64,000 nucleotides of DNA from an uncultured Clostridia bacterium (GTDB lineage Bacteria; Bacillota; Clostridia; Christensenellales; UBA1242): NCBI GenBank assembly GCA_944376845.1, contig CALWDZ010000003.1, forward strand, positions 59,758 to 123,757. The letters run 5' to 3'. Positions 23,738 to 31,700 of the stretch are shown piece by piece (position 1 is the stretch's first letter; each line of letters opens with the position of its first letter). The position numbers were made by a program, and so were the translations under genes. Under the pieces are notes generated by a model. That model saw only the letters and a program-made list of their open reading frames with translations. It did not search any database and had not been told where the DNA came from.

Positions 23738-26700
23738 ATGAAATCTTTAAAAACTAAGATAGCCACCGTATTTAGTTTTATATGCCTAGCACTGTCAATG
23801 GCAGTGTTTGGCGTTTTTTCTGCAATCAATATACAAAATAATACCAATGGTCAACTTGGCTACATAGATAAAACTTGCTACATACAAAATTCGTCTGGAA
23901 GTAAAACATTTTACTCCACAATAGAAAAGGCTTATGCTAGTGCCACCGATGGTGACGCTATTTGTGTTTTTGAGGATATATCACTTTCAGCGGACTTTTC
24001 GGTTGAAAAAAACATATCACTTATGGCGGTTTCTTCAGATGTTACACTAAATCTTTCAGGATACAACATTGTTATTGGTAGTGGCAACACACTCACTTTG
24101 GGTGGTGGCTTAAATACATTAACACTTTCTTCAAGTTCAAATAGTACAATACAAAATGAAGGCACATTAAATGTCTATGGTGGAATTATTTCAAGTGCGG
24201 AAATTACCAATATGGGCGAATTGACATTTTTTGGCGGACAAGTAGATACCATAGCAAATACAGGACTTGTCACACTTTCGCAGTCTGCACAAATCAATAC
24301 AATACAAACAACACAACAAACCGCAGGAGAAACCGATGCGGGAATTTTTGTTTCTTCAAACTTTGTAGCAACTTCACCAATACAACTTATTATAAGTGGC
24401 GGAACACCTACACCGGGTCAACAAGTTGCATATTTTCAAGAGTTGGCAGATGCACAAAATTTTGCGGACTATTTCACCTTGACGAACTCTGGATATTTCT
24501 TGCACACTTCGGGCAATTCACTTTTAATAGGTCAATACATCACACCACCAACAGTAAGTGGACAATCTACTTTCATGTATGATGGTACTTTAAAGACATT
24601 GCGATTTAGTGGTTTAACATCATTAATGAGTGTTTCGGGCGACACACAGACTAATGCTGGAGATTACACCGCAACGGTATCACTTACCGATAAAACTAAT
24701 TATCGTTGGTCAGATACAAGAGATAGTGTTGATAAAGAATTCCGTTGGAGCATTGACCCTGCACAACTTGAATATCCAACAGTTGAACAAGATGAATTTA
24801 CATATAACACTCAATCACATTCACTTGTATTTAGTGGATTAAATAAGGATTTAATGGAGGTTAGTGGAACAACATCTGCAACAAATGTTGGAACATATGC
24901 AGCACGTGTAAGTCTTAAAGATAAGGTAAATTACACATGGGTAGATGGTGAAACTGGTGATGTAACATATCCATGGACAATAAACAAACGTCAATTAACT
25001 ATTCCAACCGCTAATCCAGCAAGTTATACATACACAGGGTCTGTTATAACTGCAACTTATACAAACCCAGATTCCGAGAATATAACACTTGGCGGGGATT
25101 TGACTGCGACAGTGGTTGGCAGTTACACCGCAACGGCGACAATAAAAGACACTGCAAACAATGAATGGACAGATGGAACAACATTAGTTAAAAATATTGA
25201 ATGGTCAATCACAAAAGCCGATCTTTTGGCACCAGATGGGCTCATATGGATACCATCTGAAGATAAATCGTCAGCAACGGCAAGATGGAATGCTGTGTCA
25301 GGTGGACAGTCATACACAGTTACAGTACTTGTCAATGGTTTACCAAGCGATCTTACAAAGACTATAAATTCAACAGAAGTTAACTTCACATCAACTGAAC
25401 TTAATGCGCTAGACAACGGCACATATACCTTCCGCGTTCAAGCAATTGGCAATTCTAACTACAACGATAGTCCTACAGCAACCTCGGGCAACTTGTATAG
25501 ACTTGTCTACATGACAAACGATGGTACAAGTACAGTCCATGCAAGACAGTACTATACACAAGGACAAAGCATATCAGCACCTAGTAAACCATCACGCACA
25601 GGCTACAACTTTATCGGTTGGGCAACTACAAACACGGCAACATCAGATAACTTGCCATCAACCGCCACAGAATCAGATACATACTATGCAGTATGGAGAG
25701 CAATTTCATATAATATATCCATTAACAACGCAAGTGGCACTGGTGGTTCTGTAGCACCTTCAACCTATACTACATCTGCAAAAGATCAGAGAATAACAAT
25801 AACAGAGCCAACACGTGTGGGCTACACATTTAACGGTTGGGCAATTAAAGTTGACGGTTCATATAGTGGAAAAGAACCAACAGTAAGCGGAACAACACTC
25901 ACAATACCAGCAAATTGCTATGGTAACATTACTCTTACTGCAACTTGGACAGCAAGACAATATAATATTACTTTAAATCAAAACAGTGGCACTGGTGGTA
26001 CTATCAATACAGCAACATATAATACCTCAACCTCAAGTCAGACAAGAACATTAACAAACCCAACAAGAGCAGGTTATGAATTTGCTGGTTGGGCAATTAA
26101 AGTTGACGGTTCATATAGTGGAAAAGAACCAACAGTAAGCGGAACAACACTCACAATACCAGCAAATTGCTATGGTAACATTACTCTTACTGCAACTTGG
26201 ACAGCAAGACAATATAATATTACTTTAAATCAAAACAGTGGTACTGGTGGTTCTATCAACACAGCAACATATAATACCTCAACCTCAAGTCAGACAAGAA
26301 CATTAACAAACCCAACAAGAGCAGGTTATAGATTTGCTGGTTGGGCAATTAAAGTTGACGGTTCATATAGTGGAGAAGCACCAACAGTAAGCGGAACAAC
26401 ACTTACAATACCAGCAAATTGCTATGGTAATATTACCCTTACTGCAAATTGGACATTGGCTATTTACACCATTACATTTGAAAGAAATAGTGGTACATGG
26501 GCAAGTGGTTACCCTGTACCAAAATCCTACAATATAAATTCAGGTGAAATCACATTACCAACAGCAGACAATATCTATCGTACAAACGATATCTTCTCAG
26601 GTTGGTATACTTCATCCACCTTCTCAGGAGATCCTGTAACAAGCATTCCAGCAGGTTCAACCGGTAACAAAACCTATTATGCACAATGGACAGAGGCTGC

Positions 26701-29053
26701 GGTATATAACACAACCCGTAACTTAGGTTATAGTGACCTTACAACTGCAATAGAAAAGGCTAATGCGGGCGAAACCTTGGATGTCTTGAGTAATTTGACA
26801 TCTACTGAAACTTATATTGTAGATAAATCTCTTACAATTCAAGCAAATACAAATGATGTTGAAGTGGAGGGCTCATTTAATGTTTCCGTAGGACATCTCA
26901 TTTTGGGTGGTGGAGCGAAAAGTTTAACCATAACAAGTTCAGTTGATGCAATAACTATTTCGGGTACCGCAAATTTAACCACTAATAATCTCATTGTAAA
27001 TGTCACTACAAAATCTTCTGCAATAGTTAGCACAACTACTGGTGAAATAAATCTAGTAGGTGGAAAGATGGATGCAGTTAATCCTTATAGTCTTTCTAAT
27101 AATGTTTATTGTATAGAAGTTTCTGCTGGCACTTTGACAATAAGTAATGTTATGATAAATTCTGATACAAAATATGTTTCTTTATACAATAGTGGAGCAG
27201 AAGTGTATATAAATGGGACACAAACCATTATATATGGGATTGACAACTCTATTGGAACAATGACTATAAATGATGGTGAAATATTCAATACTTCGTCATC
27301 CAGTAGTGCAATCGACAATTCTGGCACTTTGACTTTATACGGAGGAACTATAACTGCTGGAAAGTGGGCTGTGATTAGTGGTGGAGATGGATATGGGATC
27401 TCAAATTCGGGAACTCTAAAAATTAATGATGATGTAACAATATCAGGTGGTGATAGTGGTTTATATATTGATTCTGGCTTGACAGAAATTAGTAAGGGTT
27501 CAATCAAAGGAAATCTGTACGGAATTTATTGTATAGGTGGAGATATTAATATATCAGGAGGATCATTCATAGGTACTCAAACTGCTGGAATTTACAATGA
27601 TGGTGGAAACATAAATATTTCGGAAATGACAATGATAGTAGAAATTTCATCTGATAATTATGGAATTTTTAATAGACAAGGTACGATTGAAATCTCAGCA
27701 GGTACAGTAACTGGTGAAGTAGGAATACGAAATGCTCACGAATATAGTACCGTTTCTTATATAGTAGCTACATATGCGACATTAACTGTTTCAGGTACAG
27801 CTAATATAATAGGAACACAATATGGAATAGAAAATGAAGGGCAAGGCTCACTGTATGTAAAAGGAGGAATAATAAAAGGTTCATCCACCACCTCATCGAG
27901 AGGTATTTCTATAGATACTTATTTAGACGTTAACCAAGGCGATGTTGATACAGCTATTATAGAAATATCAGGTGGAGAGATATCAGGATATCAAGGAATT
28001 AATACTAATCATTGGTTAGATATTGATGATAGTAATGGTAAAGTGTATATATCTGGTGGAAGTGAACCTGATAATTCTACCGATAATAATATAAAGGCAG
28101 CAGGAATTTATTATTATCCGTCAGCTTATACTGCTGATAATAATATTTCTGCTGGAACTATCAATGGCTACTATGGTATTTACGTGTCTGGATCCACTAG
28201 TAATGATTCTTTCTCTTTAGTTATAAGCGGTACAGCAGAAATTGTAGGTACACAATACGGAATATATAACGAATCAAGCGGTACCGTCAATATTCGTGGT
28301 GGAACAGTTACTGCAAATGGAAATGGTGGTAGAGGAATAGAAAACTCTTCTGGTATTGTCAACATCAGTGGTGGAAAGATACAAACAACTGGTAAAGCTG
28401 CTTTCTCTATATACAATTATGATGGAACAGTTGATATATCGTCTAAAGCACAAGTCACAGCAGTATATAGAGGAATTTATAGTAGAGGTAGTTCAAGTAA
28501 TGTAACTATAAGTGGTGGGACAGTTACTGTAACTGGATCTAGTGGTAGAGGAATACATAACTCTTCTGGTAGTGTTACAATCAGTGGTGGAACGGTACGA
28601 ACAACTAGTAGTACATCTACTTACTCTATATACAATTCAAATGGAACAGTTGATATATCGTCTAAAGCACAAGTCACAGCAGCATATAGAGGAATTTATA
28701 GTACAGGTAGTTCAAGTAATGTAACTATAAGTGGTGGAACGATAAATGGTAGCACTTATTGTATCTATTTAGATTCATCAGCTACACTTAATCTTAGTGG
28801 TTCTCCTACTTTCAGTGGGAGTAGAAGAATTCACTGCAATACTACATTAAATACAAGTGTTCCACATAATGCACCTATTTATGTTTCATCTCCTTTAAGC
28901 CTTAGTTCAACTATTAGGTTATCCGCTAGCTCAAATGGATATATTGTTAGGGGGTCTATCTCTTCTTTGGATCAATATTTTAGTGCTTATTCTGGTAGTA
29001 TTAGTAGTCCAATTTATTCTATGGGAACGTATGGTCTTAGGTATAGTGCATAA
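23738..29053 (+). CDS. giant (1771 aa) cell-surface adhesin-like protein
   Basis: N-terminal anchor, then MBG-like repeats (NAGDYTATVSL..NY), an Fn3-like module and six Listeria-Bacteroides (InlB B-type) repeats (PTRTGYxFxGWA). About 750 aa of G-rich beta-helix-type repeats follow (ISGG, GIYN.GG). Confidence 0.85.
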   Translation: MKSLKTKIATVFSFICLALSMAVFGVFSAINIQNNTNGQLGYIDKTCYIQNSSGSKTFYSTIEKAYASATDGDAICVFEDISLSADFSVEKNISLMAVSSDVTLNLSGYNIVIGSGNTLTLGGGLNTLTLSSSSNSTIQNEGTLNVYGGIISSAEITNMGELTFFGGQVDTIANTGLVTLSQSAQINTIQTTQQTAGETDAGIFVSSNFVATSPIQLIISGGTPTPGQQVAYFQELADAQNFADYFTLTNSGYFLHTSGNSLLIGQYITPPTVSGQSTFMYDGTLKTLRFSGLTSLMSVSGDTQTNAGDYTATVSLTDKTNYRWSDTRDSVDKEFRWSIDPAQLEYPTVEQDEFTYNTQSHSLVFSGLNKDLMEVSGTTSATNVGTYAARVSLKDKVNYTWVDGETGDVTYPWTINKRQLTIPTANPASYTYTGSVITATYTNPDSENITLGGDLTATVVGSYTATATIKDTANNEWTDGTTLVKNIEWSITKADLLAPDGLIWIPSEDKSSATARWNAVSGGQSYTVTVLVNGLPSDLTKTINSTEVNFTSTELNALDNGTYTFRVQAIGNSNYNDSPTATSGNLYRLVYMTNDGTSTVHARQYYTQGQSISAPSKPSRTGYNFIGWATTNTATSDNLPSTATESDTYYAVWRAISYNISINNASGTGGSVAPSTYTTSAKDQRITITEPTRVGYTFNGWAIKVDGSYSGKEPTVSGTTLTIPANCYGNITLTATWTARQYNITLNQNSGTGGTINTATYNTSTSSQTRTLTNPTRAGYEFAGWAIKVDGSYSGKEPTVSGTTLTIPANCYGNITLTATWTARQYNITLNQNSGTGGSINTATYNTSTSSQTRTLTNPTRAGYRFAGWAIKVDGSYSGEAPTVSGTTLTIPANCYGNITLTANWTLAIYTITFERNSGTWASGYPVPKSYNINSGEITLPTADNIYRTNDIFSGWYTSSTFSGDPVTSIPAGSTGNKTYYAQWTEAAVYNTTRNLGYSDLTTAIEKANAGETLDVLSNLTSTETYIVDKSLTIQANTNDVEVEGSFNVSVGHLILGGGAKSLTITSSVDAITISGTANLTTNNLIVNVTTKSSAIVSTTTGEINLVGGKMDAVNPYSLSNNVYCIEVSAGTLTISNVMINSDTKYVSLYNSGAEVYINGTQTIIYGIDNSIGTMTINDGEIFNTSSSSSAIDNSGTLTLYGGTITAGKWAVISGGDGYGISNSGTLKINDDVTISGGDSGLYIDSGLTEISKGSIKGNLYGIYCIGGDINISGGSFIGTQTAGIYNDGGNINISEMTMIVEISSDNYGIFNRQGTIEISAGTVTGEVGIRNAHEYSTVSYIVATYATLTVSGTANIIGTQYGIENEGQGSLYVKGGIIKGSSTTSSRGISIDTYLDVNQGDVDTAIIEISGGEISGYQGINTNHWLDIDDSNGKVYISGGSEPDNSTDNNIKAAGIYYYPSAYTADNNISAGTINGYYGIYVSGSTSNDSFSLVISGTAEIVGTQYGIYNESSGTVNIRGGTVTANGNGGRGIENSSGIVNISGGKIQTTGKAAFSIYNYDGTVDISSKAQVTAVYRGIYSRGSSSNVTISGGTVTVTGSSGRGIHNSSGSVTISGGTVRTTSSTSTYSIYNSNGTVDISSKAQVTAAYRGIYSTGSSSNVTISGGTINGSTYCIYLDSSATLNLSGSPTFSGSRRIHCNTTLNTSVPHNAPIYVSSPLSLSSTIRLSASSNGYIVRGSISSLDQYFSAYSGSISSPIYSMGTYGLRYSA
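25835..26460 (+). repeat. 252-bp (84-codon) tandem repeat, about 2.5 copies, first two about 98 percent identical
   Basis: GGTTGGGCAATTAAAGTTGACGG recurs at 25835, 26087 and 26339. Only 5 or 6 substitutions separate copies 1 and 2. Confidence 0.9.
28405..28739 (+). repeat. 219-bp (73-codon) tandem duplication in the beta-helix region
   Basis: CTCTATATACAATT...AGTAATGTAACTATAAGTGGTGG recurs at 28405 and 28624 with few substitutions. Confidence 0.8.
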
Positions 29054-29081
29054 AAAATACTTTCTGTGGTCTCAACTACTT

Positions 29082-29126
29082 GTCATTCTGAGTCCAACTT
29101 CAACGCGTCGACCTGCGAAGAATCTC
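29082..29126 (+). repeat. S-module repeat with ACGCGTCGAC-containing insert
   Basis: GTCATTCTGAGTCCAACTTCAACGCGTCGACCTGCGAAGAATCTC is nearly identical to the copies at 30866 and 31536. Confidence 0.85.
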
Positions 29127-29159
29127 AAAAAATGCAAGGCATTTTGCCTTGCATTTTTG
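29126..29159 (+). terminator. intrinsic terminator of the adhesin gene
   Basis: ATGCAAGGC-ATTTT-GCCTTGCAT followed by T5. Confidence 0.8.
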
Positions 29160-29222
29160 TATTTTTACTTGTTAAAAGAAATATGCTATGTTATTATAAT
29201 CTTAGTTAACAAAGGAGAACTT

Positions 29223-30434
29223 ATGAATTTAAATTTCATAAATCAAATTGCTTTTTTTAAGAGAAAAACTGGCAACAAAGTGCGTAAACTAACCAGATTT
29301 AAAAACAAATCAAGTGTTGAGTATAATGCATCACTTAGTATTAAAGATATTTTGGAACCGCTTATTGAAAAAGATATGCGAGACATCAATAAGATGATTG
29401 AAACCCTTTTTCGTAAACTTATGGCAAATAGAATGGGGCTTTTTACCATTGTCAAATTTGATATGAAAAATTATTTTCCATCCATATCACTTCGCTATGC
29501 TTATGATTTTTTCATCAAAGATAAAATTAGCGAAAAATATCATCCACTTTTTGAAAATTATTGTGATAATGTTAAATACAATCTTCAAGGGCTTCCACCG
29601 TCAAGCAACTTTGCGGCAGTTATGTCAAAGGCACTAAAAGACGAACTATTTGCATTTTTTAAAGTTGATGGACTAACCGATTGCTTTTATTATGTAGATG
29701 ATTTTGTGCTATTATTCAAAAAGCGTGTAAATGAAATTTACATCAAATTTGGTATTTTGGAATGTATTAAAAATGTATTTTTTAAACGCAACAAATTACA
29801 ATATCAAAACAAAGTTAAGGCACATATTGATGACTCAAAATATACTTTTTTGGATGATACAAAACTTCCTGGCAGTTTTACATGGCTAGGTTATAAAATC
29901 GGCATTTCATATGGTTGGCAGGGCATTGGCATAACGCTAGATATGGCAGATTACAAGATGGAAATATATAGAAAAGCATTTTTTGACGCCGTTAAACAAA
30001 ATTATGCTGATGAGGAAAAGATGCGTTTGATGCTATATTCTAGCACTCGCAGTGTAGTTACAAAAATACACAAGCAGGGGAAACCAGATAAAAATGTCAG
30101 CATTTCACCATTTAAATTTTACAAAAACTTCAAAAAGTACCCAGAACTGGTAGGTGAAAACACTCGACGTTTTATGCAAGGAGTGATTGTAGATGCTTTT
30201 AGACAACAAACTATTGCCATGCCATTTTATTTAAAAGATAAAGATCCAAACAGCGGTTACAATCTATGGCATAACTTTTTTAACAGCAAAGCCATTGTAT
30301 TAAATAAAACATTTGGATGGTCTTATGAAAAACTTTATAACACCATGAAAAAATATTCCAAACTTGACATTCACTCAAAGTCATATGAACAACTTGCAAA
30401 AATGTATATAGATAATTTTGTGATAAAACTTTAA
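29223..30434 (+). CDS. stand-alone reverse transcriptase, class unassigned (retron/UG-Abi-like architecture)
   Basis: RBS AAAGGAGAA precedes the ATG at 29223. Motifs occur in order: FDMKNYFPSI, LQGLPPSSNFAAVMSKAL, CFYYVDDFVLLF (YVDD at 29691-29702), FTWLGYKI. A ~150-aa C-terminal extension has no endonuclease or maturase signature. Confidence 0.8.
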   Translation: MNLNFINQIAFFKRKTGNKVRKLTRFKNKSSVEYNASLSIKDILEPLIEKDMRDINKMIETLFRKLMANRMGLFTIVKFDMKNYFPSISLRYAYDFFIKDKISEKYHPLFENYCDNVKYNLQGLPPSSNFAAVMSKALKDELFAFFKVDGLTDCFYYVDDFVLLFKKRVNEIYIKFGILECIKNVFFKRNKLQYQNKVKAHIDDSKYTFLDDTKLPGSFTWLGYKIGISYGWQGIGITLDMADYKMEIYRKAFFDAVKQNYADEEKMRLMLYSSTRSVVTKIHKQGKPDKNVSISPFKFYKNFKKYPELVGENTRRFMQGVIVDAFRQQTIAMPFYLKDKDPNSGYNLWHNFFNSKAIVLNKTFGWSYEKLYNTMKKYSKLDIHSKSYEQLAKMYIDNFVIKL

Positions 30435-30441
30435 TATTTAT

Positions 30442-30470
30442 TTGTAAATTTTTTTAATTTGTGTTATATT
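30442..30470 (+). promoter_or_regulatory. sigma-70-type promoter TTGTAA-17 nt-TGtTATATT
   Basis: -35 at 30442-30447, extended -10 at 30462-30470, 8 nt after the RT stop codon. Confidence 0.5.
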
Positions 30471-30476
30471 ATGTTT

Positions 30477-30570
30477 AAGGTTGCGAGAGCGACTGAATTA
30501 CCCGAATTCGAAACAAGATCTCAGATGTTGTTTCATGCGGGTGGGGCTGCGGCGCCACCCCTTTTTTTTT
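30477..30570 (+). ncRNA. candidate ~95-nt small RNA (or structured RT 3' UTR) ending in a strong intrinsic terminator
   Basis: Bounded by the promoter above and by a GC-rich hairpin at 30538-30561 plus T9. Internal hairpins GAATT-ACCCG-AATTC and GAAACA..TGTTTC. No RBS for the 33-codon ORF it contains. Confidence 0.4.
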
Positions 30571-30696
30571 AAAACTAAAAAATAACTCTTGATAGTTTCG
30601 TTTACTGCCAAGCGTGTCCGCACAGTTACGTACGTTTGTACGCGCCTGCGCGGACACACTTGTCGAGCCTTACTCTCAAGGTTATTTTTTAGTTTT
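30571..30696 (+). repeat. 126-nt multi-helix element A1 (family with 52329-52454)
   Basis: 16-bp terminal stem AAAACTAAAAAATAAC/GTTATTTTTTAGTTTT, junction motif CGTTTACTG, inner stem GTGTCCGC/GCGGACAC, core hairpin CGTAC-GTTT-GTACG, junction motif GTCGAGCCT. Confidence 0.8.
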
Positions 30697-30735
30697 AAAT
30701 ATTATTTAGCCTTGTCTTTCTTCGCAAAAACGATG

Positions 30736-30781
30736 TGCGCGGACTTGTCGAGCCTTACTCTCAAGGTTATTTTTTAGTTTT
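30736..30781 (+). repeat. partial second copy (3' half) of element A1
   Basis: TGCGCGGAC-TTGTCGAGCCTTACTCTCAAGGTTATTTTTTAGTTTT duplicates 30647-30696 with a 4-nt deletion. Confidence 0.8.
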
Positions 30782-30795
30782 AAATATACTATTTA

Positions 30796-31066
30796 GTCAC
30801 CCTGACCGCTCTCAGACCACTTGTCATTCTGAGGAGCGAAGCGACGTGAGAATCTCATCATCTTGTCATTCTGAGCCCAACTTCAACGCGTCGACCTGCG
30901 AAGAATCTCTATCATATGTCACCCTGACCACTGGCCCGCTTTGATGGAGAGGAAGGGTCTCAACTATAAGAGATCCTTCGTCAGCCGTCAAGGAAGCCAC
31001 ACTCAGAGTGACTAAAAAAATTGTCATTCTGAGCCTCGACCCGCAGAGACGGAGACGAAGAATCTC
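30796..31066 (+). repeat. repeat block left of GIY-YIG (S and L modules; contains the left ~177-bp direct repeat at 30821-30997)
   Basis: Near-identical to 31491-31666. Confidence 0.9.
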
Positions 31067-31086
31067 TTTAAGCATTTGCCAAATAT

Positions 31087-31401
31087 ATGAATTTGTGTAA
31101 TAATCTTACTATGTATTATGTTTACATTTTATCCAATAAAAACAATACGGTTTTATACATTGGAGTTACAAATAATTTGGTAAGAAGAGTTTATGAACAT
31201 AAACAAAAATTTGTTCAAGGTTTTACAAAAACTTATAATGTAGACAAACTTGTTTATTATGAAATTTTGTATGATCCATATAATGCAATTACAAGAGAAA
31301 AACAATTGAAAGGATTGAAAAGAAAGAAAAAAGATATGCTAATAAATAATTTTAATCCGGATTGGCACGATTTATATCAAGATATTTGTAATAGCGTATG
31401 A
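31087..31401 (+). CDS. GIY-YIG nuclease family protein (small UPF0213/COG2827-type)
   Basis: YYVYILSNKNNTVLYIGVTNNLVRRVYEH...AITREKQLKGLKRKKK is the GIY-YIG core. The start may be the ATG at 31111. Confidence 0.85.
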   Translation: MNLCNNLTMYYVYILSNKNNTVLYIGVTNNLVRRVYEHKQKFVQGFTKTYNVDKLVYYEILYDPYNAITREKQLKGLKRKKKDMLINNFNPDWHDLYQDICNSV

Positions 31402-31700
31402 GATCCTTCGTCAGCCGTCAAGGAAGCAGTTCTCAGGATGACACACACAGTCTTCTGAGCATATTTTTCTGTCATTCTGAGCGTACTTTTTTGTCATTCT
31501 GAGGAGCGAAGCGACGTGAGAATCTCATCATCTAGTCATTCTGAGCCACACTCCAACGCGTCGACCTACGAAGAATCTCTATCATATGTCACCCTGACCG
31601 CTCCCCGCTTTGACGGAGAGGAAGGGTCTCAACTATAAGAGATCCTTCGTCAGCCGTCAAGGAAGCAGTTCTCAGGATGACACACACAGTCATTCTGAGT
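31399..31700 (+). repeat. repeat block right of GIY-YIG (contains the right ~177-bp direct repeat at 31491-31666 and a 60-nt segment duplicated at 31401 and 31640)
   Basis: Direct sequence comparison. The GIY-YIG stop codon is the first triplet of the block. Confidence 0.9.

Follow-up and report, generated by a model that had tools for sequence, protein, structure and literature searches.

The window, that is, the whole 64-kb stretch of DNA from an uncultured Clostridia bacterium that we analyzed, carries on its forward strand a reverse transcriptase (RT) gene at 29223–30434, whose stop codon ends at 30434. The encoded protein is 403 aa long, with intact motifs A (FD) and C (YVDD). A promoter for this gene is predicted at 29169–29200 (+), as TTGTTA-17-TATTAT overlapping TTAAAA-17-TATAAT (consensus scan, window sequence only), and is located 3′ of the terminator hairpin (29128–29158) of an upstream surface-protein gene. 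Eight nucleotides past the RT stop begins a second promoter (30442–30470, +), with a −35 box TTGTAA at 30442–30447, a 17-nt spacer, and an extended −10 TGtTATATT at 30462–30470 (TG at 30462–63, TATATT at 30465–30470). It is followed on the same strand by an ncRNA gene of ~94 nt (30477–30570), which runs from AAGG to the end of a U tract and scores 101.8 bits with our covariance model. From 5′ to 3′ it comprises P1, a 6-bp 5′-terminal hairpin closed by a GAGA (GNRA) tetraloop (30479–30494, +); a single-stranded linker, GAAUU-ACCC-GAAUU-C (30495–30509, +); the P3 hairpin, GAAACAAGAUC-UCA-GAUGUUGUUUC (30510–30534, +); and the intrinsic terminator P4 (30539–30570, +), made of a GC hairpin at 30539–30560 and T9 at 30562–30570. 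A simple terminator scanner missed P4 owing to an internal mismatch. The cassette order is RT promoter, RT, RNA promoter, RNA, and terminator. The original prediction, made from this sequence alone, had described a unit of promoter, hairpin, and T9 immediately 3′ of the RT gene, and each of its elements was found in place, to within 1 nt.

A fold of 103 nt reached −36.5 kcal/mol (z = −3.6 against dinucleotide shuffles). The GC content of the RNA, 0.52, had been described as much higher than that of the flanks; this is true of the upstream flank (0.20–0.30) and not of the downstream flank, which is repeat DNA (0.40–0.54). With the covariance model, no second significant copy of the ncRNA was found in the window. 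The Rfam scan that had been suggested returned no family at threshold, be it in an E-value scan of 28900–31500 or in a gathering scan of the whole window, which gave three tRNAs only; the best match overlapping the element was AniS, whose 21.8 bits (E 1.1) fell short of the threshold of 50.

Immediately 5′ of the RT gene lies a gene for a 1771-aa repetitive surface-type protein (23738–29053). No TR/VR-type similarity was found between this gene and the ncRNA, and a DGR-like link between them is unsupported. On the other side, a 132-nt near-perfect palindrome (30568–30699) is inserted at the very end of the ncRNA terminator, with terminal inverted repeats of 19–25 nt and a minimum free energy of −59.3 kcal/mol (z −9.6). 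A partial second copy (30743–30787), which is a 45-nt duplicate of the right end, lies 85 nt further on, and it is the only other copy within the window. Since the palindrome is present only in the window and in the closest related locus (L001) and is absent from other loci, it looks like a MITE-type insertion and not a part of the RT system. At 29071–29127, 30796–31075, and 31397–31600 there are clusters of short repeats, rich in GC and of the type ..TTGTCATTCTGAG..GCGAAGAATCTC.., and a GIY-YIG nuclease ORF (31087–31401, 104 aa, Pfam 1.2e-17) is embedded in them. Similar repeats are also found 3′ of the ncRNA in L008 and L020. Together, the repeats and the GIY-YIG ORF look like a selfish repeat/homing-nuclease family that fills the intergenic space around the cassette.

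Conservation and inheritance of the RNA gene

Close homologues of the RT form nine clusters at 66–96% identity in an index of 5.8 billion proteins, and their named records are all MAGs of uncultured Clostridia. The ncRNA element lies 3′ of every RT homologue (L001–L023) and occurs in nine distinct variants. Its absence beside RT homologues, which the original prediction had named as evidence against itself, was thus seen in none of them.

We aligned the variants, one row each (alignment A4); all nine are related, so that covariation events are few. In this alignment 92.5% of cells are paired, against 37–51% when the partners are slid by one to three columns, and changes on both sides were seen in 14 of the 31 tested pairs (13–14 compensatory pairs in the three helices P1, P3, and P4); 0 of 500 shuffles reached the observed value. 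P1 is paired in 100% of cells, with two pairs changed on both sides. P3, which had been predicted as a GAAACA...TGTTTC hairpin, is paired in 92% of cells and has five such pairs, while the terminator shows both-side changes in seven of nine pairs, with a T-run after it in all variants. RNAalifold, run blind, recovered P1, P3, and the terminator and left 30495–30509 unpaired. The proposed covariation check on the regions downstream of the RT homologues therefore supported these three helices. It lent no support to another predicted hairpin, GAATT-ACCCG-AATTC (30495–30509), whose sequence is indeed present: as a conserved helix (P2, GAAUU/AAUUC) we rejected it, because only 82% of its cells are paired, compensatory changes are lacking, and L005 and L008 are unable to form it. 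Possible pseudoknots between linker and terminator, or between CUGA and the P3 loop, were also rejected, as inspection of A4 by eye showed that other variants do not keep them. Between variants, P1 and P3 together differ at 0–12 of 43 positions while the synonymous sites of the RT gene are saturated between lineages (pS 0.69–0.87), and the RNA must therefore be under selection.

Taken alone, the ncRNA promoter is at chance level, 12 promoter-like sites being observed against 10.9 expected in shuffles. Comparison of the variants gave another picture. All nine have TTGnnn, a spacer of 16–18 nt, and TGn-TAnnnT, and in each an invariant AAGG begins after exactly 6 nt; this 6-nt spacing is kept in L012–L017 despite ~50 extra nt between the RT stop and the promoter. 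Unlike the single-sequence match, the comparative data make the promoter significant. As the extended −10 sits at a fixed 6 nt from AAGG, transcription likely starts at about A30477, two bases before P1, and conservation of the promoter favors transcription of the ncRNA independently of the RT mRNA. The proposal of an RT-associated partner ncRNA thus gained support from the presence of the element 3′ of every homologue, from the compensatory changes, and from the extended −10 conserved at 6 nt. We conclude that the ncRNA gene is real and RT-associated, that it has a promoter and a terminator of its own, and that it forms one cassette with the RT gene.

The cassette was found in three arrangements. 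In the window, L001, L008, and L011, the order is giant surface-protein gene-RT-RNA-gltX. In L012–L016, gltX and the giant surface-protein gene flank the cassette in the orientation opposite to that of the window. In L002–L007, the RT gene lies 3′ of a SpoU methylase gene, and the genes downstream of the RNA are unrelated. RT and RNA stay together in all three, and hence behave as a linked cassette. Across 17 loci, no other gene was shared between the contexts, no effector gene was linked to the RT, and the precomputed Pfam matches of the called neighbor genes included no SLATT domain. Neither the RT nor the P1 motif was found in scans of IMG/VR, and no ncRNA copy without RT was seen with the covariance model or in the IMG/VR scan for P1. 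The L017 RT lacks its first ~140 residues, motif A among them: unrelated sequence stands in their place, next to a phage-tail-fibre-like gene. The ncRNA of this locus is unchanged. Identity of the RTs to the window copy ranges from 67 to 74%, as compared with 65–74% for the syntenic YqfD and 72–77% for YbeY. Because the RT diverges like these two proteins, we take the cassette to have been inherited vertically at a fixed site, at the pace of the neighboring core genes. Such core-gene-like inheritance is unusual for a defense system.

Relationship of the RT to Drt3a

Pfam gave nothing at E<0.1 for the window RT, and PADLOC gave weak retron RT models only (E 1.6e-6, aa 75–192, in the palm region); neither its Drt3a models nor the RT_UG17 model matched the protein directly. 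A sequence search of the PDB with the family profile found Ec86 alone, at E 1.1. The AlphaFold2 model was weak (pLDDT 57.5, below 50 in the C-terminal half) and was not used for classification; with this weak model, Foldseek recognized no more than the palm and fingers common to RTs, the top matches being RTs of DRT9, group II introns, and retrons.

Profile searching was more informative. Among 1.84 billion representatives, it retrieved 152 clusters with full-length matches and lengths of 400–470 aa. Distant members of this family match PADLOC Drt3a at 1e-32 to 1e-34 versus UG17 at 1e-10. Aligned by hhalign with canonical Drt3a that have Drt3b neighbors, the window family gave a probability of 100% (E 6.8e-44, 380 columns), and tblastn with a canonical Drt3a query matched the window RT at 1.8e-15. 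These comparisons indicate that the window RT is a divergent, full-length Drt3a homologue from a remote sister lineage, and as such a Class 2 UG RT. The original prediction had invoked retron and DRT-type systems side by side; the DRT type was upheld by the Drt3a-like RT and the retron was not. Drt3a (UG3) is a Class 2 UG RT that copies the ACACAC loop of the DRT3 ncRNA into poly(dTdG), and it is phylogenetically related to the DRT10 RTs (PMC13174585). The characterized Class 2 UG RTs all use an adjacent ncRNA as template (PMC13174585, PMC12632851).

We fetched 79 canonical metagenomic loci (L024–L102), at ~25% identity to the window RT. Drt3b (UG8), the Class 1 RT of DRT3, identified by PADLOC at about 1e-121 to 1e-123, lies ~180 nt 3′ of drt3a in 73 of the 79, and the remaining six contigs end too early. 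With a Drt3b query, tblastn found no Drt3b in the 64-kb window, in L001–L023 (0/23), or in L103–L107. Directly 3′ of drt3a, the canonical gut-Firmicutes loci have a conserved element of several hairpins, which starts at the position that the ncRNA gene has in the window relative to the RT gene. A covariance model of the nine variants (R1) had no significant match in the 79 canonical loci, so that homology of the canonical and window RNAs themselves is not established; the sub-threshold matches directly 3′ of drt3a were in L070 and L088 (E 2–7), and those in L092 and L078 were terminators 2.2 kb upstream.

While examining the canonical loci, which come from gut and termite-gut Firmicutes, we noticed that the ~180-nt gap between drt3a and drt3b contains a nearly invariant CGAUGAUGUGUGUG on the sense strand (e.g., L092, 5254–5433). 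This is a GU repeat, whereas the template known from E. coli DRT3 is ACACAC. If the element that contains it is the template, the product strand roles of Drt3a and Drt3b might be swapped in the canonical gut group. A second solo subfamily (L103–L106; e.g., L103, 3800–3900), ~30% identical and 406 aa long, was also found to be without Drt3b. Its members have ~30 nt 3′ of the RT gene before a convergent typA gene; 5′ of the RT gene, they carry a conserved promoter-like box GGTATTCGATATAAT, a short predicted transcript, and a covarying terminator. This upstream element is possibly a small-RNA counterpart of the window ncRNA, placed on the other side of the RT gene. In L103–L106 the RT gene also lies 3′ of a giant LRR_5/Flg_new surface-protein gene, and in both solo subfamilies most loci have a giant surface-protein gene (LRR_5, Flg_new, Ig-like) beside the RT.

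The linker and the possible role of the RNA

The linker is 13–16 nt long across variants, and in all nine a short direct repeat (3–5 nt) bounds it directly after P1. This A-B-A′ pattern reads GAAUU-ACCC-GAAUU in the window, GAAUU-AA-GAAUU in L020, AUUU-AACC-AUUU in L005, AAUC-UCAA-AAUC in L008, AAUU-ACCGUC-AAUU in L011, AAU-UGCGAU-AAU in L012, AUU-UAUAA-AUU in L002/L018, and AAU-AACGGCU-AAU in L001. The repeat is short and AU-rich; in shuffle tests, the 5-mers had P ~0.01 and the 4-mers 0.07–0.11, and the 3-mers (L001, L002, and L012) were not significant. Since AAUU is self-complementary, a hairpin and a direct repeat are indistinguishable in most variants, GAAUU/AAUUC pairing being possible in seven of the nine. 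The linkers of L005 and L008 lack the inverted repeat: a hairpin is impossible in both and the 4-nt direct repeat is retained, which favors the direct repeat over the hairpin. Relative to its sister L020, L008 has C in place of U in each copy of the repeat. Between the window and L001, whose RTs are 96% identical (pS 0.26), all RNA differences fall in the linker, with 3 of 15 positions and an indel versus 0 of 70 positions elsewhere. By this measure the linker is fast-evolving. In DRT10, both the A-B-A′ pattern of the template and its position directly 3′ of a stable stem-loop were shown experimentally to be required, and the template loop is poorly conserved, variable template sequence being tolerated (PMC12632851).

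We think it probable that the RNA serves the RT as a scaffold or template partner. As the linker is unpaired and fast-evolving, with A-B-A′ directly 3′ of P1 and a direct repeat that outlives the hairpin, we propose, by analogy and with somewhat less than even confidence, that it is a template loop, bounded on its 5′ side by P1 and used for templated repeat addition. The RNA would bind the RT as a scaffold and supply the template. The RT would copy A-B (GAAUUACCC) and halt at P1, after which the nascent 3′ end would re-anneal on A′ (GAAUU) and the next repeat would begin. The product would be a single-stranded (GGGTAATTC)n tandem-repeat cDNA, with 5′-GGGTAATTC-3′ as the repeat unit. If the analogy with DRT9, DRT10, and DRT3 extends that far, the repeat DNA would accumulate upon phage infection and growth would stop. 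That the RNA binds the RT, that it is copied, which part of it is the template, and what the system does in the cell are all points that we infer, and tentatively so in the case of the template.

Compared with DRT3, the window system has in common a full-length Drt3a homologue, a structured ncRNA next to the RT (the nearest canonical relatives, L024–L102, likewise have theirs directly 3′ of drt3a), and a stem-loop/loop/stem-loop layout around the presumed template. It differs in that its family is without Drt3b and has ~25% identity to Drt3a, and in that its RNA is ~94 nt long with its own promoter and terminator, against ~150 nt in DRT3. The window RNA also contains neither ACACAC nor GUGUGU, and its loop is variable among variants; with no dinucleotide motif, the expected product would be single-stranded and not a poly(GT/AC) duplex. 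The likeness to DRT10, whose repeat addition is telomerase-like, lies in the A-B-A′ proposed here directly 3′ of a stable stem-loop, in the poorly conserved loop, and in the repeat unit, which would be 7–10 nt here and is 7–9 nt in DRT10. In contrast to DRT10, the window RT has no UG17 match, no SLATT is recorded among the neighbor genes, and the RNA is 94 nt instead of 137 nt and lies 3′ of the RT instead of 5′ of the SLATT gene. DRT2 and DRT9 resemble the window system in having two components, RT and ncRNA, without a separate effector gene, and DRT9 RT-ncRNA complexes were the best structural matches of our RT model, weak as it is. However, the ncRNAs of DRT2 and DRT9 are longer and lie 5′ of the RT. 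The former templates a concatemeric gene and the latter poly-dA from a U tract, whereas the window RNA has no U-tract template or long template loop. Overall, the system would work most like DRT10 or Drt3a repeat synthesis, and in its ancestry the RT is a remote sister to Drt3a. It falls outside DRT3, DRT10, retrons, and DGRs alike, and we found no solo Drt3a-like system described in the searchable literature.

A possibility was that the RNA is a partner of the RT but not its template, in a ribonucleoprotein that acts without DNA synthesis (regulation, RNA binding, or a structural role) and in which the linker is a P2 hairpin or a protein-binding site. The active sites of the relatives bear on this. 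Among the eight RT genes compared, FD and YVDD are kept in five, that of the window included. In L002/L018, FD is changed to FS and YVDD to YIND, and in L005 YVDD is changed to HLNE; the clade with replaced catalytic residues is that of the third arrangement, where the RT gene lies 3′ of the SpoU methylase gene. In L020 and P0005, the YxDD box is shifted by one residue and is intact as YYDD. The L002-L005 pair nevertheless has a full-length RT, with pN 0.143 versus pS 0.724, and an intact RNA, promoter, and repeat pattern; both the RT protein and the ncRNA are kept there under purifying selection, which is strong for the RT. The fact that the RT is kept despite lost aspartates argues that polymerization is not always needed, and vertical inheritance at the YqfD/YbeY rate, together with a linker able to pair in most variants, is also consistent with a partner that does not template. 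Yet catalytic residues are retained in the majority of the RTs, and in L020 in shifted form, P2 lacks compensatory changes where it could form, and every characterized Class 2 UG RT templates on its ncRNA (PMC13174585, PMC12632851). On balance, we regard a partnership without templating as unlikely, though it deserves consideration.

The element might instead be no more than a structured 3′ UTR that terminates the RT mRNA, or a small regulatory RNA unrelated to the RT, which we consider improbable. It is true that P4 is the first terminator 3′ of the RT gene and that the promoter match does not exceed chance on single-sequence statistics. A 3′ UTR, however, does not account for the extended −10 and its 6-nt spacing being kept despite a ~50-nt change in distance from the RT stop, or for a conservation of P1 and P3 far beyond what a terminator needs. 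Moreover, the element accompanies the RT through different contexts and an inversion, without any RT-less copy being seen, and the downstream genes differ, so that it is not a leader.

That the element is a retron msr-msd RNA or the template repeat of a DGR is very improbable. Like a retron, the window has a small structured RNA beside an RT whose sole direct PADLOC matches are retron models, confined to the palm; a 19-nt inverted repeat adjoins the RNA, and the adjacent giant surface-protein gene could recall a DGR. But the full-length profile match of the RT is to Drt3a, which its C-terminal half matches as well, the 19-nt inverted repeat belongs to the palindromic insertion restricted to the window and L001, and no inverted repeats of the a1/a2 kind bracket 30477–30570 in an RNA that, unlike that of retrons, lies 3′ of the RT. 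Neither did blastn-short with 30435–30600 find a second copy of the RNA core, as a TR/VR pair would require, in the 64-kb window. Last, we give practically no credence to the element encoding a 33-residue peptide, since the 33-codon ATG ORF (30471–30572) has no ribosome-binding site, as had been noted, loses its ATG in L001 and others, and is shifted in frame by linker lengths of 13–16 nt, while the substitutions are compensatory for RNA pairing.

Returning to the RT-RNA pair as a scaffold or template partnership, we also asked what kind of role it might have. The fixed site, the vertical inheritance at the rate of core genes, and the purifying selection after aspartate loss led us to consider a domesticated RT-ncRNA ribonucleoprotein, with a cellular function that is possibly independent of polymerization, as opposed to a mobile defense module. 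We hold this to be rather unlikely at present. If true, bacteria would offer a counterpart to telomerase and other RTs that have been co-opted.

Characterized Class 2 UG/DRT RTs all make repetitive DNA from a small neighboring RNA, and the known versions need a partner (Drt3b or SLATT) or a long RNA. The system of the window would be a minimal, two-part version, with a 403-aa RT and a ~94-nt RNA of three hairpins. It makes a testable prediction, namely, an RT-dependent (GGGTAATTC)n product, whose unit would differ between relatives, and it would reveal how Drt3a-type enzymes act in the absence of Drt3b. Being compact, it could be of use as a programmable writer of repeat DNA. Finally, given the degenerate active sites of one clade and the core-gene-like inheritance, one may ask whether RT-RNA pairs of this kind can be domesticated for roles other than defense.
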